Shown here: positions 373 to 48,494 of the stretch, one piece after another
Numbering within the stretch: position 1 is the stretch's first letter
Layout of the letters: each line of letters begins with the position of its first letter
NCBI GenBank assembly: GCA_905235375.1
Contig: CAJOLH010000004.1
Coordinates: 2,133 to 66,132 of the forward strand
Source: an uncultured Bacteroidales bacterium
Lineage (GTDB): Bacteria > Bacteroidota > Bacteroidia > Bacteroidales > UBA3663
DNA: 64,000 bases
Direction of reading: 5' to 3'
Notes under the pieces: generated by a model
Told to the model about the DNA's origin: nothing
Database searches by the model: none
What the model saw: only the letters and a program-made list of their open reading frames with translations
Made by a program: the position numbers and the translations under genes

Positions 373-390
373 GATACATCCTACGTTCTT

Positions 391-505
391 TTTTATCGAA
401 CACGGAACTCACTGAGGACACGGAAATTTAGCTGGTTCTAATGGAGGCCTGAGTGCATTGCTACGTCGCACTCAGGACGGAAGACACTGAGGCTTGACGC
501 AAAAT
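391..505 (+). repeat. A element copy 2 (hairpin 448..476)
   Basis: Same architecture as copy 1, with a 9-bp stem CCTGAGTGC/GCACTCAGG. Confidence 0.85.
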
Positions 506-641
506 GAACTCATTGGACTTTAAGGACTTTTGCTTGCGCACTCCAGGGAGAGTAATTCCGTAAATGTCCGAAAAGACGAAAAAGGACGAAAATAATTTGT
601 AGTTATTTCCGCGTTTTTCGATGTTGTTATATAGAAGCCAA

Positions 642-2795: not shown

Positions 2796-2888
2796 CCCAA
2801 AATTGCCAAAACTGTAAGGTTTTGAGGACCGATGAGATATTTTCGGAGAAAAACTGGACAGAAATTTGGATGTTTTGGCATTTTGATT

Positions 2889-2896
2889 TATATTTG
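2889..2896 (+). promoter_or_regulatory. Bacteroidota -7 box TATATTTG (start of the shared leader cassette)
   Basis: Matches the TAnnTTTG consensus. TTTG lies about 15-20 nt upstream. Confidence 0.6.
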
Positions 2897-2940
2897 CGGT
2901 GTCCATTTCGACTTATCGAAAACAAAAGCGGATAATAACT

Positions 2941-3066
2941 AAGGGGTCGCAGAGCTCAAAATTAATTAAAAGAAAAACGGGACAAGATTGGTCACGGCTT
3001 TTTAGATTAGCTTCTTTTGATAATTTTACAATTAATTTTCTTATAATTTTGAGCGAAGCGACCCCT
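2941..3066 (+). repeat. E element (MITE-like, about 22-bp terminal inverted repeats GGGGTCGC(T/A)(T/G)(C/A)GCTCAAAATT)
   Basis: The left arm 2941-2964 is the reverse complement of the right arm 3044-3066. Confidence 0.85.
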
Positions 3067-3404
3067 AAAAAACTCGAAAAATGAGACAATAAAGGTTTCG
3101 TTGGTTTCGTGGTTTTTCGGAATCCGAAAATACGATGGGGGTAATTCCGATAATGCTCGAAATAACGAAAAAGGACGAAAATTGGATCACGGATCATGGG
3201 GATTGAACGGATGTCCGAATAAGGGCACACAGATTCCTCAGATTCACACAGATTTTTGCTTGCGCACTCCCGAGTAGTCTGCGAGTCGCCAAGGAGTTTT
3301 TTTCTCTACGGACTCATTGGACTTTAAGGACTTTTGCTTACGCACGGCAGGTTTATTGCATTTCTAAATAATATCATTTACTAACTTACTAAAAAAAACG
3401 AATC

Positions 3405-5717
3405 ATGAAGAGATCTTTATTAACATTTCTGAGTTTCGTAGTCTCTGCGCTAGTTGTGGCACAGACTACAGATGAGAAGCCGATACTGACTATTGGCTGT
3501 ATTTCCGACTTCCACAACGAGAAGAGCCTGGTGCAAACCAACGACCCGTCGAAGGTGCAACTACGAGGTTCTGTGCCCATCATTTTTGAGAAGATGGCTC
3601 AGGAAGAGGATGTTGACGTAATCCTTGTGGGCGGTGACTGCACCAGTGAGGCCGAGGTGAGCGAGGAGGTATGGATGGCAGTGAAGACATTGCTGCACAA
3701 CACCATCCGAAGCGGATTCAAGGCAGACAAACCAACGCCAGTGCTTTACGTTGCAGGCAACCACGACTACGAGCTGTCGGCCAGGAAAGACGGTGTAAGA
3801 ATCTTCAATGCTGCCGACTACTACACCTATCCCATGAAACAGGATGTGGGCGAGTTGGCTGAGGGCGAATACACCACCGAGAGCCTTACATTCAGCGACG
3901 GTCCAAAAGACGTGATGAGCGCGTACCACTACAACGTTTACGGATTCGACTTTGTAGGTCTCAACTGCGGCAAGTACAGCTTTGACTGGTCGGACGACTA
4001 CCAGTATCCCATCGCATCGGTGGAATGGGTGGACAAGAAGCTCGACGAGATCTACGAGGATGACCCCGACAAGACGGTATTCTTCTTCCTGCATATTCCG
4101 TTCAACGACTCCAACAGCCTGCGCTTCTACGACAAAGGCCTGAAGGACAACGAGTCGTCGCAGAAGCTGAAGGCTGCCCTGAGCAAGCACCCGAACCTGA
4201 TCATGCTCTACGGTCACGACCACGGCGGCGACCGTGCCTTCACCCGCCGTACCTCGGCACAACGCGTGACGCTGTACGACAGCAACGGCCGCGTCATCCC
4301 ATCATTTGACAAGACACACGTGAAGGGCGCTACAGCAGATCCCGAGAACGATGTCTGCGACGAGGTTCAGGAGTTTGCACTCTACAATGCCTATAAGAAC
4401 AAGTACTTGGGCGACCTTCCTGACAACAGGCTCCAGCCTATCGACACGAAGAGCTTCAACGTGATCTTCACGCGTAACACGACGGGAGGCTCCTACACCG
4501 TTTCGATCGATGACTGCGCCCTGCACAACGGATCGTCGGCTGCCAGCTTCTCCGAGCAGGGAGCCACTGCCATCCTGATGTACAAGGTGGACGGCTATGA
4601 GGACGGAAAGCTCGTAGCGCACAAGACCAACGACCTCGTGGAGGGTGACGACTACCTCGTGGTGCGCTACCCCGACGCAAAGGGCTACTACGTGATGGGC
4701 TGCAAGTCGGTGGAAAATGACAAGTGCATGGCAAGCATTCATGTAGATAACAACGAGGACGGCAGCATCCTCTACATTCCCGAGAACAGCGCGCCTGAAT
4801 GTGTGTGGACGCTCGCTACCCCCAAGAGAGATGAATACTACTATATCAAGAGCTCGCTCACAGGCCGCTACCTGGACTGCAATGAATACAACCTCACCAC
4901 GCTCGAAGAGAAGGGACGCTGCACGGTGCAGAAGATTGCCGACGGAGTGCCTGCCTACCACATCGCCACTGAACATGCAGGCAGGGAGAGCAACTACCAA
5001 AGGAACCTGTTCTGCGGCTCCAACGGCTACTTCTCGACCAACATTGTAGCTAATGACATTTACCTCTACAAGGTGACGGATCTCACAGCTGACAACGAAA
5101 TTACTGCCGTACGCAGCGACAAGGTGGAGCTTGGCGAGAAGTATGTGATTGTGGGCAACTGTGACAAAGACAAGTCAAAGTGGTACATCCTCACCAACAA
5201 AGACTATATCAAGCCCGACGATGGCGGCCACCGCATGGTTCCTATTCCGGTTGACCCGACGGAGACCATCTCTCTTACTGACGACCCCGACAAGTCATGT
5301 CTGTGGGAGTTTGAGGATGCCACACCGGAGAGAGGCACACCGAGCTTCTTCTCCTCGTTCATGGGCAGTGCCCGCCACTACCTAAGCGGCATCGACCCTG
5401 GCACGCTGGACACGGGTACTCCCAACATCATTCAGGGCCTCATGATTTATGTCTATGCTGACAGAGTGGTGCTTCAGATGAAGAACTACCATAAGACAGG
5501 CTATATGGCTGACAGCGGTATTACCGTGAACGAGACGCTGGGCACCTATACTTCCTACCGCACGGTACAGAAAGTTCCTGTTGGCATCAAAGAAGTGGAG
5601 CTGAAGGACGCGTTCTATGAAGAGAAGGACGTGATCTACAACCTTACAGGTGTGCGCGTGAACAATCCTTCCCATGGCATCTATATCAGAAACGGGAAGA
5701 AGATGGTGGTGAAATAA
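3405..5717 (+). CDS. calcineurin-like metallophosphoesterase with C-terminal T9SS sorting domain
   Basis: Signal peptide MKRSLLTFLSFVVSALVVAQ. Metallophosphatase motif series DFHNE, GGDCT, GNHDYE, LHIP, GHDHGG. The C-terminus VIYNLTGVRVNNPSHGIYIRNGKKMVVK matches the type-A T9SS CTD pattern. Confidence 0.8.
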   Translation: MKRSLLTFLSFVVSALVVAQTTDEKPILTIGCISDFHNEKSLVQTNDPSKVQLRGSVPIIFEKMAQEEDVDVILVGGDCTSEAEVSEEVWMAVKTLLHNTIRSGFKADKPTPVLYVAGNHDYELSARKDGVRIFNAADYYTYPMKQDVGELAEGEYTTESLTFSDGPKDVMSAYHYNVYGFDFVGLNCGKYSFDWSDDYQYPIASVEWVDKKLDEIYEDDPDKTVFFFLHIPFNDSNSLRFYDKGLKDNESSQKLKAALSKHPNLIMLYGHDHGGDRAFTRRTSAQRVTLYDSNGRVIPSFDKTHVKGATADPENDVCDEVQEFALYNAYKNKYLGDLPDNRLQPIDTKSFNVIFTRNTTGGSYTVSIDDCALHNGSSAASFSEQGATAILMYKVDGYEDGKLVAHKTNDLVEGDDYLVVRYPDAKGYYVMGCKSVENDKCMASIHVDNNEDGSILYIPENSAPECVWTLATPKRDEYYYIKSSLTGRYLDCNEYNLTTLEEKGRCTVQKIADGVPAYHIATEHAGRESNYQRNLFCGSNGYFSTNIVANDIYLYKVTDLTADNEITAVRSDKVELGEKYVIVGNCDKDKSKWYILTNKDYIKPDDGGHRMVPIPVDPTETISLTDDPDKSCLWEFEDATPERGTPSFFSSFMGSARHYLSGIDPGTLDTGTPNIIQGLMIYVYADRVVLQMKNYHKTGYMADSGITVNETLGTYTSYRTVQKVPVGIKEVELKDAFYEEKDVIYNLTGVRVNNPSHGIYIRNGKKMVVK

Positions 5718-5750
5718 GTAACTCAGATTGTCGATAACAAAACGATGTTT

Positions 5751-5898
5751 GGGGGTCGCTTCGCTCAAAATTATAAGAAAATTAATTTTTAAAATTATCA
5801 AAAGAAGATGGTCCAAAATTGCCGTGACCAATTTCGACTCGTTTTTCTTATAATTTTTTGATTCAATTTTTTGGAAATTTTGAGCGCAGCGACTGCCC
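5751..5898 (-). repeat. E element, opposite orientation
   Basis: Matches the reverse complement of 2941..3066. Starts 34 nt after the metallophosphoesterase stop. Confidence 0.85.
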
Positions 5899-5902
5899 AC
5901 AT

Positions 5903-6050
5903 TTTCGAACACGGAATGCACTGAGGACACGGAAATTAGCGGGTCACAAAGGAGGCCTGAGTGCGTTTCTTCGTCGCACTCAGGACGGATGCCACTGAGG
6001 CTTGACGCGAGACGTGTTCCGTGAGTTTCGTGTGTTCCGTGGTAGAATTC
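5903..6050 (+). repeat. A element copy 3 (hairpin 5956..5984)
   Basis: This is the longest copy and includes the 3' GTGTTCCGTGAGTTTCGTGTGTTCCGTGG segment. Confidence 0.85.
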
Positions 6051-6473
6051 GACAATTCACGATAAAGGACAAGGGCACCAAGGAGTTATTATTCTCTACG
6101 GACTTTTGGGACTTTAAGGACTTTTGCTTGCGCACTCCCGGGATTAAAGGGCACACTGATTCCACTGATTCACACAGATTTTCGCTTGCGCGCTTCGAGG
6201 ATAGGCAGTGGCTCTTCAATCTATCACGAATTGGCGAATTAGCAAATTTCTCTACGGATGTCTTTTTCTCTACGGACTTCAGGGACTCTAAGGACTTTTG
6301 CTTGCGCGCGCCAATGATAGTCCATTATGTCAGACTCCATAGAGCCAAAGAAATCTGTGGAAATCTGTGAAATCTGTGTGACATGTGCCGATGTTCTGCC
6401 GCACGGAGTGCAGGGGTTAGGTCACACAGATTTCGCAGATGAACACAGATTTTTGCTTGCGCACTCCCAGCGT

Positions 6474-6597
6474 TTTTTATTATCGAACACGGAAGACACC
6501 GAGGACACTGAAATTAGCGGGTCACAAGGGAGGCCTGAGTGCGTTTCTGCGTCGCACTCAGGACTGAAGCCACTGATGCTTGACGCGAAATATATTC
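6474..6597 (+). repeat. A element copy 4 (hairpin 6534..6562)
   Basis: Same architecture as the other A copies. Confidence 0.85.
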
Positions 6598-6770
6598 CTT
6601 AGAGAGAAGAATCGGACAGACCTCAGTGTCCTCCGTCCAGTGGACAATGCAGCGCTGTCCACTGGTCTCCCTTGGACGCATAAGATTCCGTGTCTTCGGT
6701 GTATTCCGTGGTAGATAAAAATTGTTCTGCAGCAGAAAAAAAGTTCTGTAGTAGATGCCTCCAACATTCT

Positions 6771-6860
6771 TTTTTTCGAACACGGAATGCACTGAGGACA
6801 CTGAAATTAGTGGGTCCCATGGAGGCCTGAGTGCGTTTCTGCGTCGCACTCAGGACGGAA
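6771..6860 (+). repeat. A element copy 5, 3'-truncated (hairpin 6826..6854)
   Basis: Same 5' half and hairpin as the other A copies. Confidence 0.8.
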
Positions 6861-6875
6861 AAACATCCGGAAGAT

Positions 6876-7502
6876 TTACACGTATAGTTGGAACACTACA
6901 TGATCGTTCTTTTCCATCCTGAGCTTGATGCTGTCGAAGATGCTTTTATGATCCTCATTCAATTGGTCAAGAGGGATGGAGTCGAGTACCTGCCGACACT
7001 CTTGCATCTTGTTGGCTTCCCGATATAACTCTGCCTTCATCAACAGATCTACTGCTGAGTTAAAATTGAACGAATCGTTCAATTCGACAACCGTTTTCGC
7101 GAAGAACTCAAAATCTTCATCTGAAGGTTTGTGGACTTTCTTGCTTCTATAGAAATAGTCGTTATAGGATTGGATTAACCAGAATCGGAGATTATTAAGT
7201 GTTCTATCGTCCACTCCTTCTGCCTGGATCTGGACGTACGCTTCTTTCCACTCGGGGAAAGTCAGTTCGCCAAATGCGGATGAGTAGCTGTCACCTTCTC
7301 CGCACCAATTTTTATATTCCTCATAATATTTGCCACAGTTGGGGCATTTCTGTACTGGAGATACCATTGGAAGCATTGGCGCAATCCTTTTGTTATCGGA
7401 CCAAAAGGTGGCGCCGCAGGTATTCCCTGATGCCATTGTAAACAGTTCTTTCTTCGTCCCACAATAAGGGCACTTCACGATTTTAGCTTTTCCTGGAGTC
7501 AT
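6876..7502 (-). CDS. hypothetical protein with N-terminal double CxxC zinc ribbon
   Basis: 208-aa ORF with CPYCG...CPNCG in the first 60 aa and a helical acidic C-terminal half. Lies in a locally AT-rich segment. No family recognised. Confidence 0.5.
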   Translation of the reverse strand: MTPGKAKIVKCPYCGTKKELFTMASGNTCGATFWSDNKRIAPMLPMVSPVQKCPNCGKYYEEYKNWCGEGDSYSSAFGELTFPEWKEAYVQIQAEGVDDRTLNNLRFWLIQSYNDYFYRSKKVHKPSDEDFEFFAKTVVELNDSFNFNSAVDLLMKAELYREANKMQECRQVLDSIPLDQLNEDHKSIFDSIKLRMEKNDHVVFQLYV

Positions 7503-7760
7503 AGTCTGTACTATTTTAAATAAACTTTTTGTTGTAAATTTTTGTTGTGTGCAAAATTAAGACCAAAAAATTGGATTGACAAGATGTTTGGGATTTTTTT
7601 TCACGATTTTTTGGAAAAAGAGTTCATAATATTTGGAGATTTGCAAAATAAATAGAATGATATTATTGAAAGGCATGCTACACTAACCGAAAGTCCGTCG
7701 AATTATAAGGGTGAGATTAATATTCCCGAGTATGTCGATTTCGAAGGCGACAAGTATTGT

Positions 7761-8165
7761 GTGTATTGTATTTACAGTTCGGCTTTCGACGGAAGCGAAG
7801 AATTGACTAAAGTGACCATCGCGAAAACAGTGGAGTATATCGGCTTTGCGGCTTTCGCCCACACAGGCTTGACTTCTGTGGAAATTCCGGAAAGCGTGAC
7901 GATGATCAATGCTTGCATTTTCGCTGAATGCCTTAGTTTGCAATCGGTTACTATACCGAGCAGCGTAGAAAAAATTTCAGATTATGCCTTCGATAATTGC
8001 ACTAGCTTGAGAAAGATTGTTATAAGAAGGACTACCCCTCCGTCTTTGCATGAAGACGCATTCGCAGATGTCGATAAATCGAAGATCACGGTCTATATAC
8101 CTAAGGGCAGCATGAAATACTATAATAATAGAACATGGAAAGACTTCATCCTCGTTGAGGAATAA
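7761..8165 (+). CDS. BspA-type leucine-rich-repeat protein, short or 5'-truncated
   Basis: Repeats of the form (V)TIPxSVxxIGxxAFxxCxxL. The frame is open back to 7656 and already reads like LRR sequence (GEINIPEYVDFEGDKY), but it has no ATG and no signal peptide. It may be a gene fragment. Confidence 0.45.
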   Translation: MYCIYSSAFDGSEELTKVTIAKTVEYIGFAAFAHTGLTSVEIPESVTMINACIFAECLSLQSVTIPSSVEKISDYAFDNCTSLRKIVIRRTTPPSLHEDAFADVDKSKITVYIPKGSMKYYNNRTWKDFILVEE

Positions 8166-8184
8166 GGGAAAAATATTAAGAAAA

Positions 8185-8363
8185 AAGGCTTCGCCAGAAA
8201 AAGCCCCGGGCTCGATGCTGGACGAAAAAGGCTCTGTAGATTTGCTCAGATTAACCGGATTTTCCGCTTGAACCGACATAACAGAAATCCGATGAATCCG
8301 AGCAAATCCGTAGAGTTTTTTAACGTTAATGATCGTATAATGAACCGTTAATGGTCATTAATG
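8185..8363 (+). repeat. F element copy 1 (about 180 bp, long hairpin 8232..8315 + T-run)
   Basis: Roughly 80% identical to 20609..20786 by eye. Follows a + strand stop codon. Confidence 0.85.
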
Positions 8364-8385
8364 TTTTGATGTAGATGATTTGAGA

Positions 8386-11298
8386 TTAGAAGCTGATGAG
8401 GAAATCGACGAGGTTCTGGTCGGGGGAAAGGGAGAACTTGCGGCGGAGACGGAGGCGGGCACTTTCGACGCCACGTACGGAGAGGTTGGTGAAGGTGGCG
8501 ATCTGCTTGGTGGAGAGATTGAGGCGCAGGAGGGCGCAGAACTTCAGGTCGCTGGCGGTGAGCGAGGGGTATCGCTCCTGCAGGTTGCGGAAGAAGTGTT
8601 CGTGGATGAGGTCGAAGTTCTTCTGGTAGATGCTCCAGAACTCGAGGTTGCCTTCAGTCTGCTGGATGCGCTTGAGGAGGGCATTCATCTCGCGCACCGA
8701 GATGTTGCCCTTTTTCTGTTCCTCCTGCATTGATTCGCGGAGGTTCTCGATGACCTTTTCCTTCGAGAAGACATCCATGGCCAAGGTAGCAAGATCCTTG
8801 GACTTGGAGGAGAGCTCGGTTTCGAGTATCTGCCGCTGCTGCTGTGCGATGCGCTGTTCCTGCTCGAGCATGATGATGCGCTGTTCGCGGCTCTCCCGTT
8901 CATGCTGATGCTGCTGCAGGAGGATGGCACGGCGCGTGCTCCATCGGGCATAGATCCATGCTACAATGCCGATGATGCCAAGATAAAGAAGGATGGACCA
9001 CCAGCGGAAATACCAGGGTTGGAGGATGCGGAAATGCAGCTGGAGCGTATCGAGGGTTTCCCCTGTGGCACCAAGCGCCTCAGCCTGAAGCGTATAGGTA
9101 CCGGGGGTCAGATTGTTGAGCGTCAGCTGCCGGTCGGTGATTGGAATGTCGCGATTGGGACCTTCGGGGATGGAATAGCGGAACGAGATGCCACTCCCGT
9201 TGTAGTCGGGATAGGAGAAGATGAGGTTGATATTGGGTTCGATGACGGGCACACCATCGATGAGCTCCTGATGCGAGATGTCCTGTCGCTGTCCGTTGCT
9301 CTTGTTGAAATAGGACGTGGAGACAGCAATGCGTGGCTGGATGAGCGAAGCGAAATGACGTGCAGCGAGGTCGTATCGCACCACGCCGCCCGACATGTTG
9401 AAGTAGGCACAGTCGCCGAACTGAAAGACGTTGGCGCACCTGTCGCCCGCCAACATACCGAGCGAAGAGACGGGGATGTACTGACGCAGACAAAGGCTGT
9501 CGGCCTGCTTGTCGATGAGGGCATAGCCCTTCTGCCCTGCCAACCACACGCCGTAGGAGCCAGCATCGGTAGCGTTGAAGACATCCTGCGTACTGGTGAG
9601 AAGACGGTTGAGCGGTTCGTAGGGGACGATGCGCTGCGAAAGGTCGTCGTAGGTGTAGAGCCGCTGTTCGTCGCTCAGCACGATGTTCCCGAAGAACTTC
9701 ATGACATGGCAGGTGGAAGCTCCTCCCTCCTCACCGTCGAGGCGTTCGAACGAGCGGAGGTGCTGGACGGCACGCAGGTCGCGATCGAGCGTGATGCAGA
9801 AGACTCCCTTCTGCATATTGACCGCCCAGATGTGCCCCTGGTGATCGACCTCGAAATGACGGATGGGTGACGAGAACCCTTCGACATTGTGACTGAAGAC
9901 CCACTTGCCCTGATGCTGACGATAGATGCGCAGACGGGTGTAGGACGATTCGACAAGAACATCCTGGTCCCAAATGCGGCATTGCTGAAGGCACGTGCTG
10001 CTGGCATCAGTGTCAGGTACGGGATTGAGCTGATAGCCGTGGTCGGCATCGACCATGAACGTACTGCGATTGCAGCCGAGAAAAAACTGATCTCCAATGC
10101 GGGTGATGTGCCAGTTCTGCCCTTCAGTGTTGGGCACAAGGGTCGCCTCTCCCTGACGCTCGCCTTTCGCTGAGGAGATGGAGTCGGCATCGATGGGGAT
10201 ATGGTAGAAGCCCTCGTTGGTGGCCATGAGAAGTTCACCCTGATGGAGCTGAAGCCCATAGACGGTGCCGATGGACTGATGGACGGGCGAAGGTCTGAGG
10301 CAGGTGATGGGGAAGCCGCAATGAATGAGGGCTATGCCGTTGTCGAGACAAGCCCAGACGTTGTTGTCGGCATCGCAGAAGAGGTTGAGCACCGAGTTGT
10401 TGACCAATCCGTCAGCGACGTTGTAATGCCAAAGCAGCTTACCACTGAGGTCGAGACCGTAGATACCATCGCGGATAGTGCCGATGACGAGCGTGCTGTC
10501 GCGGGTGAAGACAGCACGGTTTATGGTGGCACGGCGCAACTGTTCGTCGATGTTGGTATGGTAGGGAATGGTGAGCCCGGAGGCGGGACGATGCAGATAG
10601 AGCGCGGCATTCTCGGTGCAGAGCAGCATATCGCCAGTGGAACGAAGCTGAAAGCCTGCCACGATGCGACTGTTGCCATAACGCGAAGCGGGAATGGCGG
10701 GTTCGTAGTCGTGCCCCGTGAAGCGATAGTAACCGCCTTCGATTAGTTGCGCCCACAGCTGTCCGCCTATCTGATGGAGATAGAGCGGATGCTTATCGCT
10801 GACGTTGATGGGGCTGACACTGCCCTTTCCATCGTTGGCATCAGGGTCGTAACGGAAGATGGAGGCAAAGGTCTGGAAGTAGATGACATTGTCCTGCTGC
10901 AAGATGAACCAAGGCTCCTCGTGTTCGATCGGGAAGTCACCGATGAGGGGACGCAGCGAGGTGTAGATGAAATGCCCGAAGGTATCGCGTTCGAAGTAAC
11001 CGAAATCTTCGTAGGTACCTACATAGATGCGGCTACCTACTGCCTTTACCGTACGGATGATGGTATTGTCGGCGATGGAGGCAGACGACCACTGGAAGCC
11101 GTCGTAAACCAGAAGACACTTATTGGTGGCAAAATAGACGATGCCGTTCTGATCCTGCGAGCAGCACCACACCTGCGAGCCGATAGAGAGTCCGTAGTCG
11201 GCAGGCGTAAAATTGGTGATGACGGGTCGGAACCCTGCAGCCTGCATGACCATACATACGGGCAGGAGCCACAAGAGGAGGAGGAAACGGAGCTTCAT
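8386..11298 (-). CDS. transmembrane one-component regulator: beta-propeller/Y_Y_Y sensor + LuxR-type HTH
   Basis: The ATG at 11298 gives the signal MKLRFLLLLWLLPVCMVMQA. The upstream part of ORF 8386..11526 runs through the SusC promoter region and is an artefact. Y_Y_Y-like ISFRYSIPEG...TPGTYTLQAEA is followed by the TM segment WWSILLYLGIIGIVAWIY, a coiled coil, and C-terminal LTASDLKFCALLRLNLSTKQIATFTNLSVRGVESARLRLRRKF (LuxR/GerE HTH). Confidence 0.8.
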   Translation of the reverse strand: MKLRFLLLLWLLPVCMVMQAAGFRPVITNFTPADYGLSIGSQVWCCSQDQNGIVYFATNKCLLVYDGFQWSSASIADNTIIRTVKAVGSRIYVGTYEDFGYFERDTFGHFIYTSLRPLIGDFPIEHEEPWFILQQDNVIYFQTFASIFRYDPDANDGKGSVSPINVSDKHPLYLHQIGGQLWAQLIEGGYYRFTGHDYEPAIPASRYGNSRIVAGFQLRSTGDMLLCTENAALYLHRPASGLTIPYHTNIDEQLRRATINRAVFTRDSTLVIGTIRDGIYGLDLSGKLLWHYNVADGLVNNSVLNLFCDADNNVWACLDNGIALIHCGFPITCLRPSPVHQSIGTVYGLQLHQGELLMATNEGFYHIPIDADSISSAKGERQGEATLVPNTEGQNWHITRIGDQFFLGCNRSTFMVDADHGYQLNPVPDTDASSTCLQQCRIWDQDVLVESSYTRLRIYRQHQGKWVFSHNVEGFSSPIRHFEVDHQGHIWAVNMQKGVFCITLDRDLRAVQHLRSFERLDGEEGGASTCHVMKFFGNIVLSDEQRLYTYDDLSQRIVPYEPLNRLLTSTQDVFNATDAGSYGVWLAGQKGYALIDKQADSLCLRQYIPVSSLGMLAGDRCANVFQFGDCAYFNMSGGVVRYDLAARHFASLIQPRIAVSTSYFNKSNGQRQDISHQELIDGVPVIEPNINLIFSYPDYNGSGISFRYSIPEGPNRDIPITDRQLTLNNLTPGTYTLQAEALGATGETLDTLQLHFRILQPWYFRWWSILLYLGIIGIVAWIYARWSTRRAILLQQHQHERESREQRIIMLEQEQRIAQQQRQILETELSSKSKDLATLAMDVFSKEKVIENLRESMQEEQKKGNISVREMNALLKRIQQTEGNLEFWSIYQKNFDLIHEHFFRNLQERYPSLTASDLKFCALLRLNLSTKQIATFTNLSVRGVESARLRLRRKFSLSPDQNLVDFLISF

Positions 11299-11338
11299 GG
11301 TGGATAAAATATTTAGAAAGAGGGTGCGTTTTCGGGCA

Positions 11339-11346
11339 CAAAGATA
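11339..11346 (-). promoter_or_regulatory. -7 box TATCTTTG for the Y_Y_Y/LuxR regulator
   Basis: Lies 41 nt upstream of the 11298 start. Confidence 0.5.
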
Positions 11347-11508
11347 CGAATTATTATTGAAACGTGGAAATTTTTTTATAATTATTTCATTATTCAACTC
11401 AATAATTAACAATAGATTGTAAAAAAGAGCGTAGGAAAAGCGTAGTAGAAGCAAATCGTAGCGTAGTAGATTCGTAGTATAATATTTGGACGTAAGGTAG
11501 AAAAACCC

Positions 11509-11516
11509 TATCTTTG
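11509..11516 (+). promoter_or_regulatory. -7 box TATCTTTG (shared leader cassette, SusC operon)
   Basis: Matches the TAnnTTTG consensus. TTTGG lies about 22 nt upstream. Confidence 0.6.
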
Positions 11517-11561
11517 CAGCGTCCATTACGAGAAATCGAAAACAAATGCGAATAATAACAA

Positions 11562-11690
11562 GGGGGTCGCTTCGCTCAAAATTCTCAAAAAATTAAATCA
11601 AAAAATTATAAGAAAAACGGGGCGAGATGGTCACGGCTTTTTAGATCACCTTCTTTTGATAATTTTTTATAATATTGAGCGAAGCGACAC
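11562..11690 (+). repeat. E element
   Basis: Same orientation and context as 2941..3066. The right arm is degenerate (GCGACAC). Confidence 0.85.
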
Positions 11691-12163
11691 TAAAACAAAA
11701 CATCGAAAAACCTGGGACAAAAAATTTTCGTTGATTTCGTGGTTTTCGTGGTTTTTCGGAATACTAAAATACGAGGGAGGTAATTCTGAAAATGTCCGAA
11801 AAGACGAAAAAGGACGAAAATTGGATCACGGATCATGGGGATTGAACGGATGTCCGAATAAGGTCACACAGATTCCTCAGATTCACACAGATTTTGCTTG
11901 CGCACACCCGTGATTGTCTGCGAGTCGCCAAGGAGGTATTTTTCTCTACGGACTTATTGGACTTTAAGGACTCTTTGCTTGCGCACTCCAGGGAGAGTAA
12001 TTCCGAAAATGTCCGAAAAGACGAAAAAGATCCGAAAAGACGAAAAAGGACGAAAATGGTTTGTAGTCATTTCCGTGTTTTTCGAAGTTGCCATGAAGCG
12101 AACATTCCAACAACCTACACATCTTATATATTATTAATCCACAAAAACCAAATCCAATTAAGT

Positions 12164-15100
12164 ATGAAAAAGCAAACACTTGCATTATTGCTTGTCCTTG
12201 CAATGGTTCCCGTGTCGTTGTTGGCACAGAGCTTAGGCAAGGTGAAGGGTCGCGTGCTCGATGAGTTCGGCGAACCTCTGTTGGGTGCTGTAGTACGCGT
12301 GGCGGGCACCGACATCGTCACCACCACCGACTACGACGGCAACTACGAACTCGAAGGTGTGGCATCGGATGCCACATTGACCTGCTCCTACCTTGGCATG
12401 ACGACAGAGAACGTGAAAGTGAAGGGCGGAACGATGAACTTCAACATGTCGCCCGACGTACAGAACCTTGAAGAGACCGTGGTGATAGGCTACGGCGCAG
12501 CCAAGTCGAAGGACCTGACCGCACCCATCGAGACCGTGAAGGCAGCCGACATCGTCAGCGTACCGACCTCATCGCCCATGGCAGCCCTGCAGGGCAAGGT
12601 GGCTGGTGTGAACATCGTGAACAGCGGTGTGCCTGGCGGCGGACCTACGGTGACCATCCGTGGTCTGGGATCGTTCAGCAACACTACCCCACTCTATGTG
12701 GTGGATGGAATGTTCTACGACAACATCAACTTCCTTAACAACAGTGACATCGAGGAGATGAGCATCATGAAGGACGCCAGCGCCAGCGCCATCTACGGTG
12801 TGCGTGCCGCCAATGGCGTGGTGATCATCACTACGAAGAAAGGCAAGAACAACGAACGCGCCAAGGTGTCGTACGACGGCTACGTGGGTATGCAGAAGGC
12901 CACGAACGTGCTTGAGATGTGTAATTCGAGCCAGTACGCACAGATGCTGCGCGAGAGCGGTGTGGACGAATACCTGCCGATGCTGAAGGCCAGTGTGGAA
13001 AAATACGGTGGCAACTTCGAGCAGAACCAGTACAACTCGGACACCGACTGGTACGACGAGCTGCTTCGCACAGCCGTGATCACCAACCACAGCCTGAACA
13101 TCAGCGGCGGCACCGACAGGGCCACCTACGGCGTGGGCATGAGTTACCTCTACCAGAACGGTATCATGGATGCCGACAACGACTATCAGCGTCTCAACTT
13201 CCGTGGCAATCTGGAGTACAAGGCGTTCAACTGGCTCACCGTGGGCATGAACGGCGTGTTCAGCCAGAGCACCCAGCAGCTGCCAAACAACGCTGCCTGG
13301 CAGCAGGCATTCAACATGCCCGGCATCTTCCCCGTGTTTGACAAGACAACCGCCGACATCTACACCGACGGCTATGCCAGCCCGAACACCATCGGCGTAA
13401 GCAATAACTTCTACAACCCTGTGGCTACGGCTGCATTCTTCGACTCGCAGAACAAGAACTACCAGGTGCTGAGCAACTTCTATGCACAGTTCAACCTCAT
13501 CCCTGAGAAGTGGAACTTCCGCACCAGCTACAGCTACGACTATTCGACCACACGTGCAACGGCATTCACGCCCCAGTACTACCTGGGCAACGTGCAGCAG
13601 ACTTCGACCACCAGTCTGACCAAGACCGACAGCAACTACAACAACTACGTTTGGGACAACACGATGACCTACACCGACCAGTGGGGCGACCACCGCTTGA
13701 CTGCCATGCTCGGCACCTCGCTGCGCCAGGAGCGTTACGACGGCCTTTGGGGCACTGCACAGAACGTACCCGAGGGACAGGACAGCTGGAAGTACCTCTC
13801 GCTGGGCGACAAGGAAGGCATCACCCTGGGTGACGGAGGCTACCGCTACCGTGCCCTCTCCTACTTCGCACGTTTCAACTACAACTATGCCGACAAGTAC
13901 CTGCTCATGGTAACCCTCCGCGAGGACGGCAGTTCGAAGTACAACGAGCCTTGGGGCTTCTTCCCCTCGATAGGTGCTGCCTGGGTAATCACCAACGAGG
14001 ACTTCATGAAGGATCAGGACATCTTCCAGTACCTGAAGTTACGTGCCAGCTGGGGCAAGCTCGGTAACGACAAGATTGCCGCCAGTGCAGGTTATGCAGC
14101 CAGCTCGACCGCACGTGCCGTCTTCGGCACAAACAATGCCCTCGACGGCTACATCAACGGTTCGACCTTCAGCTGGCTCAGCTGGGAAACCGTCAACGAG
14201 ACCAACATCGGCCTGAACTTCACCACCGCCCACAACCACCTCACCGGCGACATCGACTGGTACTATCGCATGACCAGCGACGCCGTGATCAGCCCCGCAC
14301 GCCCGATGCAGAACACCACCGTGGCAGGCAACTGGGCAGAAATCCTCAACATGGGTATCGACCTGACCCTGAACTGGAACCAGCGTCTCACCAAGGACTT
14401 CAGCTACCAGGTGGGTGCCACCCTCGGATGGCTGCACAATGAGGTGAACAGCCTGAAGGACGGCGTGAAGCAGGTGCAGACCAACGGCAAGGTCTATCAG
14501 ATTGTGGGCGAAAAGATGAACAGCTACTATGGCTACAAGGTGCTGGGCGTCTATCAGAATGCTGCCGAAATTGCAGCTGACCCTGTGGCCGTTGCCAACG
14601 GCCTTGAGCCCGGTGACTTCCGCTATGAGGACGTGAACGGCGACAACGTGATCGACGGCAGTGACAAGCAGGCCCTAGGCAGCTACGTGCCCGACATCAC
14701 CTACGGCCTGAACGCAGCCGTACAGTGGCGCAACCTCGACTTTGCCATCAGCTTCTACGGCCAGGCAGGAGGCGAACTCTGGAACCGCAAGCGCGCCCTG
14801 CGCTATGCTGCCCAGAACTACAACTTCGACCTTGCCCAGTTTGAGAACCGCTGGCATGGCGAAGGAACGAGCAACTCCGATCCTTCGGCCAAGGCCCTGA
14901 TGAAGAGCTGGAACGTGGGCGACAGCCAGAATGCCAGCTACTTCGTCGAAAGTGCCAACTACTTCCGTCTGCAGAACGTTTCGCTCGGCTATACGTTCAA
15001 GAATATCGAAATGGGCGGCTACACCCTGCCCAGCGCACGCGTCAGCCTCTCTGCCGACCGTCCTTTCACCTGGTTCTCGGCCAACTCCTTCTCGCCTGAG

Positions 15101-15181
15101 GTAAGCGATGCCGACGGTTGGGATTGGCAGGTCTATCCACTCTCCGCTACCTATACCCTGGGTGTGCAGATTAACTTCTAA
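12164..15181 (+). CDS. SusC/RagA-family TonB-dependent outer-membrane transporter
   Basis: The ATG at 12164 gives MKKQTLALLLVLAMVPVSLLAQS. CarboxypepD_reg-like GKVKGRVLDEFGEPLLGAVVRV, plug region, about 1000 aa, ends in an aromatic residue (VQINF). A SusD-like gene follows directly. The 11894 start in the ORF track crosses repeat DNA. Confidence 0.92.
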   Translation: MKKQTLALLLVLAMVPVSLLAQSLGKVKGRVLDEFGEPLLGAVVRVAGTDIVTTTDYDGNYELEGVASDATLTCSYLGMTTENVKVKGGTMNFNMSPDVQNLEETVVIGYGAAKSKDLTAPIETVKAADIVSVPTSSPMAALQGKVAGVNIVNSGVPGGGPTVTIRGLGSFSNTTPLYVVDGMFYDNINFLNNSDIEEMSIMKDASASAIYGVRAANGVVIITTKKGKNNERAKVSYDGYVGMQKATNVLEMCNSSQYAQMLRESGVDEYLPMLKASVEKYGGNFEQNQYNSDTDWYDELLRTAVITNHSLNISGGTDRATYGVGMSYLYQNGIMDADNDYQRLNFRGNLEYKAFNWLTVGMNGVFSQSTQQLPNNAAWQQAFNMPGIFPVFDKTTADIYTDGYASPNTIGVSNNFYNPVATAAFFDSQNKNYQVLSNFYAQFNLIPEKWNFRTSYSYDYSTTRATAFTPQYYLGNVQQTSTTSLTKTDSNYNNYVWDNTMTYTDQWGDHRLTAMLGTSLRQERYDGLWGTAQNVPEGQDSWKYLSLGDKEGITLGDGGYRYRALSYFARFNYNYADKYLLMVTLREDGSSKYNEPWGFFPSIGAAWVITNEDFMKDQDIFQYLKLRASWGKLGNDKIAASAGYAASSTARAVFGTNNALDGYINGSTFSWLSWETVNETNIGLNFTTAHNHLTGDIDWYYRMTSDAVISPARPMQNTTVAGNWAEILNMGIDLTLNWNQRLTKDFSYQVGATLGWLHNEVNSLKDGVKQVQTNGKVYQIVGEKMNSYYGYKVLGVYQNAAEIAADPVAVANGLEPGDFRYEDVNGDNVIDGSDKQALGSYVPDITYGLNAAVQWRNLDFAISFYGQAGGELWNRKRALRYAAQNYNFDLAQFENRWHGEGTSNSDPSAKALMKSWNVGDSQNASYFVESANYFRLQNVSLGYTFKNIEMGGYTLPSARVSLSADRPFTWFSANSFSPEVSDADGWDWQVYPLSATYTLGVQINF

Positions 15182-15219: not shown

Positions 15220-16725
15220 ATGAAAAATATGAAGACTTTATTATACGTACTCCCTGCTGCAATGCTGGCACTGACCAGCTGCAACGACTACATCGACATT
15301 GATGCGGAGAACTCTATCGACGTGGATGCCATCGACTACACCGATGCGAGCACCATGCACGAGGCTGCCACAGGTGCCTACGCCACCATGCGCACACAGG
15401 GCATCCACTGGGCCAATGCCATGATCTGGCTGGGCCGTGACGACGACATGTCGTCGGGACGCGCCGATGACCAGGGCGATGCACTCAAGTTCGGCTACCC
15501 CGGCGGTTACACCAACCCGAATGCCTTCTGGGCAGTAGGCAACATGTGGAGCACGATGTACAACATCATCATCGACTGCAACTCGAACATCGATGCGCTC
15601 GACCAGTATGCCGAGAACCTCAGCACCGGCAGCGCAGATTACCAGAACTACCTGCAGTACAAGGGTGAAGTGCGCGTAGTGCGCGCCTGGGCCTACTACC
15701 AGCTCGTCACCAACTTCGGGCCCTGTGTGATCTATCGCGACAACACGCAGAACTCGTTCCGCCGCAACATCGTGGAGAAGGTCTATGACTACATCATCAC
15801 CGAGCTGCAAGAGGCTGCTGCCGGCATGGAGGCCAAGCGCCCCAACCAGATGTCGCGCCCCGGAGCATTCACCAAATACACAGCCGAGGCACTTGCCGCC
15901 CGCACGGCGCTGCTTGCCGGTAACTATGCACTGGTGGAGACACTCACCGACGACATCATCAATGGTGGAGGCTTCGAGCTTTACCCCGACTACTACAACC
16001 TCTTCAAGATCCCCGGCAAGCTCTGTAACGAAAGCCTCATGGAGGTGCAGTGCTCGGACTTCGGCACAGCCAGCGGCGACTATGTGGGCGTTGACCAGTG
16101 GTTCAACTTCCGTGGCGCAGGTCTCACCCTCTACGACGAGGCCGGCAACTGGAGCAACGGCATTGGCGGCTGGACGTTCATGCGCTACAGTCCCAAGTTC
16201 CTCCAGCTGATGGAGAGCCGTGGCGAGACCATTCGCTTGGAGACTTCGCTGCTTGTGGCTGGCACTACCACACGCGAGGGCTGGACTATCAACGGCGACC
16301 TGGACCGTACAGCCGAGATAGCTCAGATCTACGACGGCAAGGGCTATCTTCCCTTCGAGCAGATGACTGCTGGCAACAGCGAGTGGGGACGCAACAACAA
16401 CGTGCGCATCATCCGCTATGCCGAGGTGCTGCTGATGAATGCCGAGGCCAAAGTGCGCTTGGGCAAGAACGGTGATGCACCATTCAACCAGGTACGTACA
16501 CGCGCTCAGATGCCAACGGTGAGCGGCGTCAATGTAGATCAGATACTGGAGGAGCGCCGTGTGGAGCTCTGCGCCGAGTGGGGCCTGCGTTACACCGACC
16601 TCTGCCGCACCGGTCAGGCAGCCAGCGTGCTTGGCAAATATGGCTGGAACGAGGGCAGCCGCTATATCCCTGTGCCTTCGAACCAGATCATCAATACGCC
16701 CGAACTGGGTGAGGATCCCGAATAA
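15220..16725 (+). CDS. SusD/RagB-family nutrient-binding lipoprotein
   Basis: Lipoprotein signal ...LALTSCNDY. About 500 aa, 39 nt downstream of SusC. TPR-like SusD sequence features (RAWAYYQL, IRYAEVLLMNAEA, ERRVELCAEWGLRYTDL). Confidence 0.9.
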   Translation: MKNMKTLLYVLPAAMLALTSCNDYIDIDAENSIDVDAIDYTDASTMHEAATGAYATMRTQGIHWANAMIWLGRDDDMSSGRADDQGDALKFGYPGGYTNPNAFWAVGNMWSTMYNIIIDCNSNIDALDQYAENLSTGSADYQNYLQYKGEVRVVRAWAYYQLVTNFGPCVIYRDNTQNSFRRNIVEKVYDYIITELQEAAAGMEAKRPNQMSRPGAFTKYTAEALAARTALLAGNYALVETLTDDIINGGGFELYPDYYNLFKIPGKLCNESLMEVQCSDFGTASGDYVGVDQWFNFRGAGLTLYDEAGNWSNGIGGWTFMRYSPKFLQLMESRGETIRLETSLLVAGTTTREGWTINGDLDRTAEIAQIYDGKGYLPFEQMTAGNSEWGRNNNVRIIRYAEVLLMNAEAKVRLGKNGDAPFNQVRTRAQMPTVSGVNVDQILEERRVELCAEWGLRYTDLCRTGQAASVLGKYGWNEGSRYIPVPSNQIINTPELGEDPE

Positions 16726-16735: not shown

Positions 16736-16883
16736 CTATCACGTTTTTTCTATCACGAATTAGAGAATTTGAGAATTATTATTTGTGATGGCTTTGGTCA
16801 AGACTTAAAAATTCGATAATTCGATAATTCGTGATAAAAAAGAAAAACACGATAATTCGTGATAAGAAAATAACGTGATAAAG
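16736..16883. repeat. word hairpin (TATCACG / CGTGATA, AATTCGAT words) between SusD and GH144
   Basis: The left arm 16750-16780 faces the right arms 16810-16837 and 16848-16866. Confidence 0.8.
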
Positions 16884-16901
16884 ATAAAAAAGTCACTCAA
16901 C

Positions 16902-18257
16902 ATGAAACATTATCACAAATCACTGATAGGACTGGCAAGCCTTGCACTGCTCGTCTGCTCGTGCAACAGTTCGAACGAACAAACGAACCAAGAGGGCAGT
17001 CAGACAATCCAGCTGAGCGACAACGAGCTGCTTGACCTTGTGCAGCAGCAGTGCATGAACTACATGTGGGATGGTGCTGACCCGACCTCCGGACTTGCCT
17101 ACGAACGCATCCACCTCGATGGCGTTTATCCTGCGAACGACAAGATGACGATTACCACGGGTGGTTCGGGCTTCGGTGTTGCCGGCCTGATAGTCGGCAT
17201 GGATCGCGGCTGGATCAAACGTGCGGATGGCGTGGCTCGACTGACCCGCATCGTCGATTATCTGGCAAAGGCCGACCGCTACCACGGTGTCTGGTCGCAC
17301 TGGATGGACGGTCCTTCGGGCAAGACCATCCCCTTTGGCACGAAGGACAACGGAGGCGACCTCGTGGAGTCGTGCTTCCTGATGCAGTCGCTGCTTTGCG
17401 TGCGCCAATATCTGAAAGCTGATGTCGAAGCGGAAGCCTACGTCATCGACAAGATCAATGAGCTATGGAAGGCCATGGAGTTCGACTGGTACACACGCGA
17501 AGGCCAGCACGTAATCTATTGGCATTGGAGTCCCAACTATGGCTGGGAAATGAACTTCCCGCTGGAGGGCTACAACGAGTGCCTTATCACCTACATCCTT
17601 GCAGCTGCCAGTCCGACACACACCGTGCCTGCCGAATGTTATCACGAGGGCTGGGCACGCAGTGGCGGCATCAAGAGCGATGCTGCTCCCTACGGCTATC
17701 CGCTCGACGTGAAGCACAACTATGCCGAGGCGAACGGCGGTCCGCTGTTCTGGGCACACTACAGCTGGATTGGACTTTGTCCGAAGGGGCTCAAGGACCA
17801 ATATGCCGACTATTGGCACGTGACGGCTAATCATGCCCTTGCCAACTATGCCTACTGCGTGGATAATCCCAAGGGCTACAAGGGCTACAGCAAGGATTGC
17901 TGGGGCCTGACCGCCAGCTATTCGCCCGACGGATATGCAGCCCACGCTCCCAACCAGGACCTTGGCGTCATCACGCCAACCGCTGCCCTTTCGAGCTTCC
18001 CCTACACTCCCGAACAGAGCATGGCCGCCTTGCGTCATTTCTATTCGATGGAGTCGTTCCTCTGGGGCAAATACGGGCCGTTCGATGCCTTCTCGCTCGA
18101 TCCTTCGTGGACCCTTCCACGTTACCTTGCCATCGACCAGCTCACCATTGCACCCATGATCGAGAACTATCGCACAGGGCTGCTCTGGAAACTCTTCATG
18201 AGCTGTCCGGAAGTGCAGGAGGGACTGACGAAACTGGGGTTTACAATTAACAATTAA
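16902..18257 (+). CDS. GH144-like (DUF3131, 'glucoamylase family') putative endo-beta-1,2-glucanase lipoprotein
   Basis: The ATG at 16902 gives MKHYHKSLIGLASLALLVCSCNS. Size (about 450 aa) and sequence character match my recollection of the DUF3131/GH144 family. The assignment is from memory, not a search. Confidence 0.55.
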   Translation: MKHYHKSLIGLASLALLVCSCNSSNEQTNQEGSQTIQLSDNELLDLVQQQCMNYMWDGADPTSGLAYERIHLDGVYPANDKMTITTGGSGFGVAGLIVGMDRGWIKRADGVARLTRIVDYLAKADRYHGVWSHWMDGPSGKTIPFGTKDNGGDLVESCFLMQSLLCVRQYLKADVEAEAYVIDKINELWKAMEFDWYTREGQHVIYWHWSPNYGWEMNFPLEGYNECLITYILAAASPTHTVPAECYHEGWARSGGIKSDAAPYGYPLDVKHNYAEANGGPLFWAHYSWIGLCPKGLKDQYADYWHVTANHALANYAYCVDNPKGYKGYSKDCWGLTASYSPDGYAAHAPNQDLGVITPTAALSSFPYTPEQSMAALRHFYSMESFLWGKYGPFDAFSLDPSWTLPRYLAIDQLTIAPMIENYRTGLLWKLFMSCPEVQEGLTKLGFTINN

Positions 18258-18311: not shown

Positions 18312-18320
18312 GGATTGGCT

Positions 18321-20608: not shown

Positions 20609-20786
20609 AAAGCATCGCCAGAAAAGCCTTCAGGCTCGATGCTGGACGTAAGAACTCTACGGATTTTCTCGGATTTACCGGATTTTCTGCTTGAACCGAC
20701 TTAACAGAAATCCGATGAATCTGGAAAATCCGTAGAGTTTTTAACGTTAATGACCGTATAATGGGCCGTTAATTACCATTAATACT
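20609..20786 (+). repeat. F element copy 2 (hairpin 20655..20737 + T-run)
   Basis: Follows the GH3 stop. CTCTACGGATTTTC...GAAAATCCGTAGAG then TTTTT. Confidence 0.85.
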
Positions 20787-23831: not shown

Positions 23832-23838
23832 CTTTTAT

Positions 23839-48490: not shown

Positions 48491-48494
48491 ATTT

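Follow-up and report, generated by a model that had tools for sequence, protein, structure and literature searches.

The susC leader and its modules

The window analysed here is a 64,000-nucleotide (nt) stretch of DNA in which the susC gene of a polysaccharide utilization locus (PUL) is preceded by a leader of about 640 nt, built from short sequence modules that recur in the intergenic DNA around it. The leader sits between the gene of a divergent sensor-regulator and the susC-led PUL. The nearest relatives of the encoded SusC (92–96% identical) come from metagenome-assembled genomes (MAGs) of sheep, buffalo and cattle forestomach, and the sequence runs containing the window are ruminant gut metagenomes; the host is an uncultured rumen Prevotellaceae/Bacteroidales organism. 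The features of the locus are as follows.

8386–11298, minus strand: divergent sensor-regulator gene (signal peptide, Reg_prop, weak Y_Y_Y and weak C-terminal helix-turn-helix); with a −7 box of its own, likewise on the minus strand, at about 11339–11352
11428–11479, plus strand: array of AGCGTAGTAGA words, 11-nt period, 4.8 copies (Tandem Repeats Finder, TRF; alignment of seven loci), upstream of the −33 box
11485–11521, plus strand: conserved susC promoter, with the −33 box TTTG at 11485–11488 and the −7 box TATCTTTG at 11509–11516, then CAGCG
11522–11559, plus strand: 5′ cassette TCCATTACGAGAAATCGAAAACAAATGCGAATAATAAC, 38 nt, with the palindrome TT(T/A)CGA-N4-TCGAAA; begins at the predicted transcription start
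11562–11689, plus strand: E element, a long hairpin or inverted repeat of about 125 nt resembling a MITE (miniature inverted-repeat transposable element), arms 11566–11591 and 11663–11688
11699–11711, plus strand: AACATCGAAAAAC, the closing stem's left arm, pairing with 12077–12089 (minimum-free-energy, MFE, and centroid folds)
11725–11821, plus strand: preD (TTTTCGTGG words, 9-nt period) and D1 (CGAAAAAGGA words)
11822–11910, plus strand: linker and B module (CACAGATTnn three times, then TTTTGCTTGCGCAC), 97% identical to 164–227
11936–12058, plus strand: C module (CTCTAC, GGACTnnnn three times, TTTGCTTGCGCAC) and then D2, jointly matching the two arms of one palindromic unit
12060–12100, plus strand: 3′ module, containing the right arm of the closing stem, GTTTTTCGAAGTT, at 12077–12089; right end of the element GCCATGAAGCG, family consensus GTTATATAGAAGCG
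12101–12163, plus strand: proximal leader, module-free and G-poor, kept in orthologues from 12099–12149 onward; presumably the translation-initiation region
12164–15181, plus strand: susC (TIGR04056, 818 bits; start at 12164 rather than 12165)
15220–16725, plus strand: susD, 3′ of susC in the PUL
16875–18257, plus strand: PF10091 glucoamylase-family gene, PUL member after susD
18315–20591, plus strand: GH3 gene, PUL member after the PF10091 gene

To judge from its PF10091 glucoamylase-family and GH3 genes, the PUL probably acts on a beta-glucan. Two gene models that would have intruded into the leader were ruled out. An N-terminal extension of SusC (in-frame ATG at 12056, TTG at 11894) finds no counterpart in the orthologues, which align from Met 12164, the first residue of the signal peptide, without upstream sequence. 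A minus-strand open reading frame (ORF) reaching 11526 was rejected, because translation of the regulator starts with a signal peptide at 11298 and the −7 box of its gene lies upstream of that point.

AACATCGAAAAAC is complementary to GTTTTTCGAAGTT, which makes the cassette and the 3′ module the ends of one dispersed palindromic element; E, B, C and D are nested inside it. When the full 645-nt leader was folded, 11699–11711 paired with 12077–12089 and enclosed preD to D2, in the MFE and the centroid structure alike. The short leader of metagenome contig L100, with the element arms ATATAACATCGAAAA and TTTTCGATGTTATAT, is predicted to form the cassette 5′ hairpin and an uninterrupted 15-bp closing stem (z −4.9). 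The cassette palindrome of the susC copy has a mismatch, and its fold reaches only −1.5 kcal/mol.

The arms of E are 26 nt long and 88% complementary, with predicted RNA folds of −39 kcal/mol for the susC-leader copy (z −5.7) and −41 kcal/mol for another (z −5.6). Among six aligned copies (11540–11715, 2920–3090 and 5730–5915 of the window; L091, L102 and L005), the right arm TTATAATTTTGAGCGAAGCGACCCC is nearly invariant. The left arm, GGTCGC-NNN-GCTCAAAATT, contains a variable triplet (TTC, AGA, TGC, ACA or ATA), which forms a 3-nt bubble in five of the six copies; the cassette directly precedes E in five of the six. C and D2 have counterparts at 43610–43700 (minus strand) and 6260–6345, in which GGACTnnnn words precede TTTTGCTTGCGCAC, after which the words return inverted as nnnnAGTCC...GTAGAG. 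This right arm aligns with the D prefix TCCAGGGAGAGTAATTCC, and C and D are thus related. TRF found periods of 9–11 nt in about 2–4 copies within preD, D, B and C, in agreement with the original prediction, made from the sequence alone, that each module is a string of 9–11-nt 'syllables'. A search of the window with Rfam 15 at the gathering threshold had a tRNA as its sole match, and at E≤1 positions 1–12300 gave chance matches of the miRNA type only, far below threshold.

Copies of the modules in the window

The leader had been proposed to have a colinear counterpart with the order cassette, E, D, B, C in front of a second gene. This was borne out by blastn, which aligned 11509–11992 with 2889–3351 at 80.4% identity over 499 columns (E 1.2e-114). 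Ungapped sub-blocks match at 92% (3096–3256 versus 11735–11895) and 81% (2889–2963 versus 11509–11583), and segment identities range from 77 to 100%. Both copies have a −7 box (TATCTTTGCAGCG at 11509–11521, TATATTTGCGGTG at 2889) with a −33 ATTTGGA upstream of it. Other parts of the susC leader are nearer to a third leader: B to the copy at 164–227 (97%), and D2 with the 3′ module to 508–662. The module-containing regions outside the susC leader are listed below.

143–641, plus strand: third module-built leader (B, F hairpin, G, F, C, D, 3′ module), before a lipoprotein gene (ATG 642)
2889–3351, plus strand: colinear copy (−7 box, cassette, E, preD, D, link, B, C; without the 3′ module), before a secreted metallophosphoesterase gene (ATG 3405)
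5718–6875, no strand assigned: 1.16-kb module array between convergent genes (E on the minus strand, F three times, C twice, B twice plus an inverted B, G, H); no leader
35429–35593, minus strand: short leader form (−7 box, truncated cassette, D words, 3′ module), before a 1091-amino-acid (aa) adhesin-like gene
43257–44010, minus strand: module array between two plus-strand genes (C, B-like, H, G, preD, D, 3′-module-like, short E)
2902–2939 (plus strand), 35580–35554 (minus strand, truncated) and 56077–56040 (minus strand): other cassette copies
2942–3066 (plus strand) and 5755–5893 (minus strand): other long E copies, likewise with inverted-repeat arms
about 43275–43305, and 56007–56035: short hairpin forms of E

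The fourth cassette copy (56090–56027, minus strand) precedes a carboxylesterase gene. The 3′ module TTTGTAGTCATTTCCGYGTTTTTCGAWGTTG, at ≤3 mismatches, occurs at 596–626 (plus), 12060–12090 (plus) and 35481–35511 (minus), three copies against 0.00 expected from 100 shuffles; its proposed presence near the starts of three genes therefore stands, with two of the ranges first given (596–639 and 35469–35511) slightly too wide. TTTTGCTTGCGCAC, the shared end of B and C, has 11 copies at ≤1 mismatch against 0 expected, and CTCTACGGAYT has 10 against 0.05. Each module family is represented by 3–11 copies within the 64 kb, in units of 40–220 nt. As had been described, the leader of the 1091-aa gene is short: about 165 nt separate the −7 box (35593) from the ATG (35428), and about 50 nt separate the cassette from the 3′ module. 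The label 'T9SS' (type IX secretion system) given to this protein (32153–35428, minus strand) was not confirmed, with no T9SS C-terminal sorting domain at threshold in Pfam or NCBIfam; its domains are choice-of-anchor J/D, Cleaved_Adhesin and Ig-like.

The modules are not specific to leaders: they also occur at 5718–6875 and, antisense, at 43257–44010. Of the 9.3 kb of intergenic DNA in the window, about 49% matches a repeat in some other intergenic region, gaps between convergent genes included; spacers within the operon are occupied by related word arrays. Inverted module pairs are present at some places only, for instance 6351–6452 and 20650–20740, and the modules of the three leaders are mostly in one orientation. 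The word arrays often form inverted pairs flanked by CTCTAC...GTAGAG.

Such inverted-pair arrays at the 3′ ends of genes form long hairpins at 20650–20745, 23870–23960, 8280–8320 and 59650–59830. The hairpin after the GH3 stop codon (20650–20740) is followed by a T-run (TTTTT) at 20727–20745 and looks like an intrinsic terminator; that at 59650–59830, between convergent genes, has GGGATTnnnA five times facing repeated TnnnAATCCC. The leader-like array at 43257–44010 begins directly after the stop codon of a small secreted protein gene (42753–43256), and within it, at about 43880–43960, the 31-nt unit GGGACTTTTTCTCAATATTTTGAGCCAAAAAT is repeated about 2.5 times.

Variation of the leader among orthologous susC loci

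The leader was compared with those of six sister-species loci (L002, L003, L005, L010, L016 and L080) whose SusC proteins are 92–96% identical in amino acid sequence. In all six, homology extends from the regulator side through the AGCGTAGTAGA array, the −33 box and the −7 box up to TTTGCAGCG, stops at 11521–11523 and restarts at 12099–12149, 15–65 nt before the ATG. The intervening stretch consists of about 55 nt with zero modules in L002 and L003, and of about 250, 320, 380 and 510 nt of unrelated hairpin or word modules in L080, L016, L005 and L010, respectively. The leader of L010 is that of L005 with an insertion nested within a hairpin, and some modules of the sister-species leaders recur in their own or in sister loci. 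None of the six leaders has the cassette or the 3′ module; these two ends are therefore part of the inserted material.

The susC leader is a hot spot for the gain and loss of small repeats, because the orthologues differ between the promoter and the last 15–65 nt before the ATG. The points fixed at the level of the locus are the promoter (to 11521) and these last 15–65 nt. The original prediction held that leaders grow by insertion or duplication of modules between fixed ends. The leader proved variable over the six loci, and growth by gained modules is supported by both the range from about 55 to about 510 nt and the relation between L005 and L010, but at the susC locus neither the cassette nor the 3′ module is a fixed end. 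At the level of the family, across the metagenome cassette leaders described below, 'conserved ends, variable interior' does hold.

We also noted the module TATCACGAATTAGAGAATTTGAGAATT in the window's spacer between susD and the glycoside hydrolase gene (16739–16797) and in that between an outer-membrane protein gene and a peptidyl-prolyl isomerase gene (23832–23870), as well as in the susC leaders of L010 (5806–5863) and L080 (5809–5863). Some module families are common to several species but lie at different places.

Copy number and spread in metagenomes

Run X19, which contains 94% of the locus' words, was used to estimate copy number. Word depth was 15–18 in the single-copy flanks and 200–3000 in the modules (2975 for the left arm of E, about 1000 for B and C), or 10–165 times single copy. 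Metagenome contigs break at module borders: seven match the window from 11509 on and six from 11565 on, and are unlike it before these points; similarity to other metagenome copies begins at the −7 box. The window's modules had almost no matches in loci of 80 species (about 1 Mb), the exception being a single cassette with E in L005. When the window was added to these loci, giving 1.12 Mb of unbiased sequence, the cassette was likewise limited to the window copies and the one in L005. There it is part of a cassette-E-closing-stem unit that has convergent genes on both sides and lacks a canonical −7 box. The repeat families are thus lineage-restricted. Scans of IMG/VR for the E arm and the C end gave 0 matches and hence no sign of phage carriage.

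A scan for the −7 box followed by the cassette, a pattern that required the −7 box and so yields a biased sample of copies, retrieved 22 rumen contigs with at least a dozen distinct upstream promoters. The cassette is followed by a short D/3′-module hairpin in L100, by E in L091 and L102, and by other hairpins in L081, L087–L089, L094, L098 and L099. Both the 5′ cassette and the 3′ end of the leader family, TTTTCGATGTTGTTATATAGAAGC, recur, around an interior that can be empty or consist of E, of other hairpins or of an IS110-family element. Where the 3′ side is present, the leader element ends in GTTAT(A/T)TAGAAGC(G), 10–70 nt before the ATG. Copies with both arms of the closing stem number only 4–5, too few for a test of covariation or compensatory changes. 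No consistent direct repeat was found as a target-site duplication in the flanks of the six E copies or in comparisons of filled with empty leaders; the leader unit is flanked solely by GCAGCG/GAAGCG, which is short and imperfect.

Twelve metagenome contigs carry one and the same IS110-family element at an identical point of the cassette leader, and the promoter upstream differs from contig to contig (L085, positions 366–2027; L082–L084, L086, L090, L092, L093, L095–L097 and L101). This element encodes a 455-aa DEDD transposase (PF01548 and PF02371) and sits between GATAATAAC and TGTTATATAGAAGC of the leaders, with the junctions ...GCGGATAATAAC|AGGAAGGTGCCAGGC and GCCTGGCACCTACATCC|TGTTATATAGAAGCC; its ends differ from the ends of the leader repeats. 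Its 5′ non-coding region corresponds to L085 366–599. The element is abundant in the rumen metatranscriptome run X5, in which a 1.7-kb contig of an IS110 copy, at a depth of 130, is contiguous with the cassette. The palindromic centre of the leader element is thus a landing pad for other elements. The window itself is without an IS110 copy.

Promoter and transcription

The AGCGTAGTAGA array is kept in all six orthologous loci, as seen in the alignment of seven loci, and the leader is not. By its conservation, the array is a candidate operator or binding site of the divergent sensor-regulator, separate from the repeat pile. The promoter motifs agree with those determined by differential RNA sequencing in Segatella copri, whose mean 5′ untranslated region (UTR) is only 69–76 nt (bioRxiv 10.1101/2024.04.05.588293). 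Inspection of the leader revealed no further TAnnTTTG. The C-module end GACTTTTGC matches the −7 box at 7 of 8 positions, so that an internal promoter is possible. No T-runs follow E, F or the closing stem in the sense orientation, a pattern that does not fit an attenuator based on intrinsic terminators.

Among the RNA runs scanned, none contained this strain (5–6% of words, all from shared modules). A 954-nt RNA contig from an L005-like organism comprises susC, 154 aligned leader nt and 115 further 5′ nt, about 270 nt upstream of the gene if the remainder of the contig is counted. RNA contigs end at 11509–11513, which is a repeat border where the assembly graph branches, and these ends give no reading of a transcription start. 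The conserved promoter and the lack of another TAnnTTTG suggest that the leader is co-transcribed with susC at this locus. The G-poor, module-free proximal stretch would fit the need of Shine-Dalgarno-less initiation in Bacteroidota for an unstructured region (PMC3155529).

Origin of the leader

We favour, at a probability of roughly 60%, the explanation that the susC leader arose by nested accretion of lineage-specific small repeats, similar to repetitive extragenic palindromic (REP) sequences, bacterial interspersed mosaic elements (BIMEs) or MITEs, in a dispensable part of the leader, and that it is transcribed as a hairpin-rich 5′ UTR with an effect that is modulatory at most. After the conserved PUL promoter come about 580 nt of interspersed repeats, nested and specific to the lineage. 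Their first layer is the palindromic leader element directly after the −7 box, namely the cassette with its small hairpin and the inverted arms ...GATAATAAC/AACATCGAAAAAC and GTTTTTCGATGTT/GTTATATAGAAGCG. The second layer is nested in the first: E lies between the cassette and the left arm, and the loop that the arms enclose contains preD, D, B, C and D2. The elements belong to high-copy families of the REP/BIME/MITE kind, which populate the intergenic DNA of this lineage of rumen Prevotellaceae in both orientations. Repeats could accumulate in the leader because it tolerates extra DNA downstream of the transcription start, as far as the unstructured ~60 nt. Transcription of the whole pile would then be driven by the conserved promoter and yield a 5′ UTR of about 640 nt with stable hairpins, which probably modulate mRNA stability and processing at most. 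The 470-bp colinearity would reflect a composite block copied between dispersed leaders, by ectopic recombination or gene conversion, rather than independent assembly. Such block copying among dispersed repeats is suggested because the segment identities range as widely as they do and parts of the susC leader are nearer to the third leader (143–641), as in a mosaic.

Several observations weigh against this explanation. The cassette adjoins the −7 box in four of four window copies; this order of cassette and promoter exceeds what random accretion predicts and suggests targeting or selection. In each of the three module-built leaders, the modules are oriented along the direction of transcription. 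No transposase, including the REP-associated tyrosine transposase (RAYT; IS200/IS605-type Y1), was detected among the window's ORFs, and no autonomous parent with matching ends was encountered in the sequences covered; because these and a clear target-site duplication are missing, mobility is deduced from distribution only. An internal promoter or processing site in the leader is also possible.

Some of the same observations would be accommodated if the leader were a functional, shared cis-regulatory device, which we regard as unlikely though not negligible. Here the cassette would act as a 5′-terminal hairpin or as an operator, TTTCGA-N4-TCGAAA (about +5 to +20), selected together with the closing stem before genes that are mostly for secreted or outer-membrane proteins, and the TCGAAAA, GGACT and CAGATT words would be arrays of sites for RNA- or DNA-binding proteins that set mRNA stability or transcription. 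The placement of the cassette immediately after the −7 box, exactly where metagenome similarity starts, fits this proposal, as do its recurrence behind at least a dozen promoters in the (biased) sample of 22 contigs, the preservation of its stem halves around a variable 4-nt spacer, and the six occurrences of (A)TCGAAAA, in both orientations, in a 130-nt short leader. Signal peptides are encoded by five of five window genes with module-built or cassette-type leaders, and the analogous 11-nt word array upstream is kept and probably functional. Orthologous susC genes (92–96%), however, do without the cassette and the 3′ module, two of them with a plain 55-nt leader; a regulatory device of this kind is therefore dispensable for this PUL. 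The mismatched, weakly folding palindrome of the susC cassette, the L005 cassette unit between convergent genes with no promoter, and a cassette leader in front of a cytoplasmic GNAT-like gene also speak against it, and the two-arm copies are too few to supply the compensatory changes by which the structure could be supported.

Less probable still is a mobile 'portable leader' that targets promoters: a new kind of unit, running from the cassette to GAAGCG, would insert itself specifically into the extended −7 consensus TTTGCAGCG of Bacteroidota promoters, retain the target look-alike GAAGCG at its right end and hence start at the transcription start. GCAGCG|(T/A/C)CC forms the left junction in every case, the susC copy, L100, L087 and L091 share AGAAGCG as right end (others have GAAGCC or GAAGCA), and the insertion relative to the orthologues begins within a few nt of the −7 box; targeted insertion into the cassette leader is demonstrated for the IS110 copies. 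Yet no recombinase is linked to the unit, the GCAGCG/GAAGCG repeat is short, imperfect and constant rather than target-derived, and the L005 copy lies away from a canonical promoter. TTTGCAGC is moreover a common promoter consensus here, so that its adjacency to the cassette could reflect selection or recombination between promoters. If such a mobile leader existed, it would turn short leaders into long structured 5′ UTRs, and its palindromic centre, as a landing pad for E, word-array hairpins and IS110, would rewire post-transcriptional control of surface-protein and PUL genes within the lineage.

That a short-read assembler mis-joined repeats into an artificial composite leader and colinear copy is very improbable: short-read unitigs do break at module borders, leaving 11551–11641 and 11772–11870 unspanned by single-copy contigs, but near-single-copy X19 unitigs match the junctions of the locus exactly (10800–11550, 11642–11771, 11871–12003 and 11998–12800), the independent sample X20 has 11638–11773 with two differences together with contigs ending at 11560 and starting at 12051, and the colinear copies differ by about 20% plus indels, as collapsed repeats would not.

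Relation to known repeat systems

As a nested accretion of small repeats, the pile could be viewed as a Bacteroidota counterpart of mosaic repeats such as BIME, BOX and MITE, with membership in any one of them not established. The original prediction recognised no described element class for the genus. The general class is in fact described (REP/BIME, BOX, MITEs, BrickBuilt), but the present families have no Rfam match and did not appear in the literature searched. Features of MITEs found here are terminal inverted repeats (in E and in the leader element), small non-coding units of less than about 600 bp and multiple copies.

BOX elements of Streptococcus pneumoniae consist of boxA, a variable number of boxB, and boxC; they are intergenic, often lie in 5′ leaders and are predicted to form stable RNA structures. 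The likeness lies in conserved end modules with variable internal modules. Unlike BOX, to which they have no sequence relation, the present repeats comprise many module families rather than three, grow by nesting rather than linearly and have an end module that adjoins the −7 box. Correia elements (Correia repeat enclosed elements, CREE) of Neisseria are small inverted repeats near genes that are co-transcribed with them, and as 5′-UTR hairpins they alter mRNA processing or stability; they have defined terminal inverted repeats and a TA duplication, and some provide promoters. What is shared here is the presence of hairpin elements near genes and their probable co-transcription; the terminal-inverted-repeat and TA-duplication features and the promoters are those of Correia elements.

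REP, BIME and REPIN (REP doublet forming hairpin) sequences of Enterobacteria and Pseudomonas are high-copy extragenic hairpin units in variable mosaics, transcribed and targeted by IS110 elements (PMC3733652, PMC2817692, PMC1525189). High-copy hairpin units with short motifs, in mosaic clusters and in both orientations between genes, are found here too. The module maps of 143–641, 2889–3351, 5718–6875, 11522–12100 and 43257–44010 vary as in BIME mosaics, but the Y/Z alternation of BIMEs is not seen, the leader modules being mostly in one orientation. The CTCTAC...GTAGAG that flanks many word-array hairpins recalls the GTAG tag of REPs, as a lead only. REPs are 20–40 nt long and GC-rich (PMC3733652), whereas the present units are AT-rich, longer and internally periodic (9–11-nt words), and one family starts exactly at transcription starts. 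GTAG-type REPs were unreported in Bacteroidetes in a 2013 survey (PMC3733652), and the window's ORFs lack the RAYT gene of REPIN-RAYT systems.

The BrickBuilt MITE of Porphyromonas gingivalis, which also belongs to the order Bacteroidales, is intergenic and species-restricted, with leader and tail subunits around tandem units, and affects or contains promoter activity; its units are 23 nt long and form long tandem runs, and a genome contains about 19 copies (PMC4596501). In contrast, the units here are of 9–11 nt in about three copies, with many families, inverted-pair hairpins and a far higher copy number; no 23-nt runs were found, TRF periods being 9–13 nt with 2–5 copies. IS110-family elements are known to target REP-type repeats (PMC1525189, PMC11208160, PMC11187229). 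The insertion of IS110/IS1111 elements, guided by bridge or seek RNA, into REP-type targets resembles what is seen in the metagenome cassette copies, a neighbour of the window finding.

Other features of the window

A type II restriction-modification island at 45552–47805, downstream of an AAA_14/DUF4143 ATPase gene, comprises an XhoI-like endonuclease gene (PF04555) and then an Eco57I/N6 methylase gene. At 48019–48482 there is a 126-nt tandem repeat (three overlapping 212-nt copies 126 nt apart, 86–87% identity), which overlaps a 160-aa ORF (48025–48507) without a Pfam match. Arrays of GGGGTTYGA with a 9-nt period lie within ORFs at 25315–25440 and 40206–40277: one, of 14 units, in an AIRS-family gene (24988–26289, minus strand) between its two Pfam domains, and a shorter one close to the C-terminus of an SSF transporter gene (39149–40612). 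These arrays look like in-frame intragenic repeat insertions.

Significance

The locus offers a natural system in which small repeats nest into hairpin centres, in a phylum, Bacteroidota, where REP-type systems are hardly described. With about half of the intergenic DNA repeat-derived and contigs breaking at the modules, the repeats bear on MAG quality and on the assignment of promoters to genes in this clade; together with the IS110 element, they are potential strain markers. Prevotellaceae of the rumen are major degraders of fibre, and the expression of their PULs is usually discussed in terms of sensor-regulators and small RNAs. Related species with near-identical susC genes have 5′ UTRs of 55 to 640 nt made of different repeat repertoires, and strain differences in mRNA stability or translation are therefore plausible.

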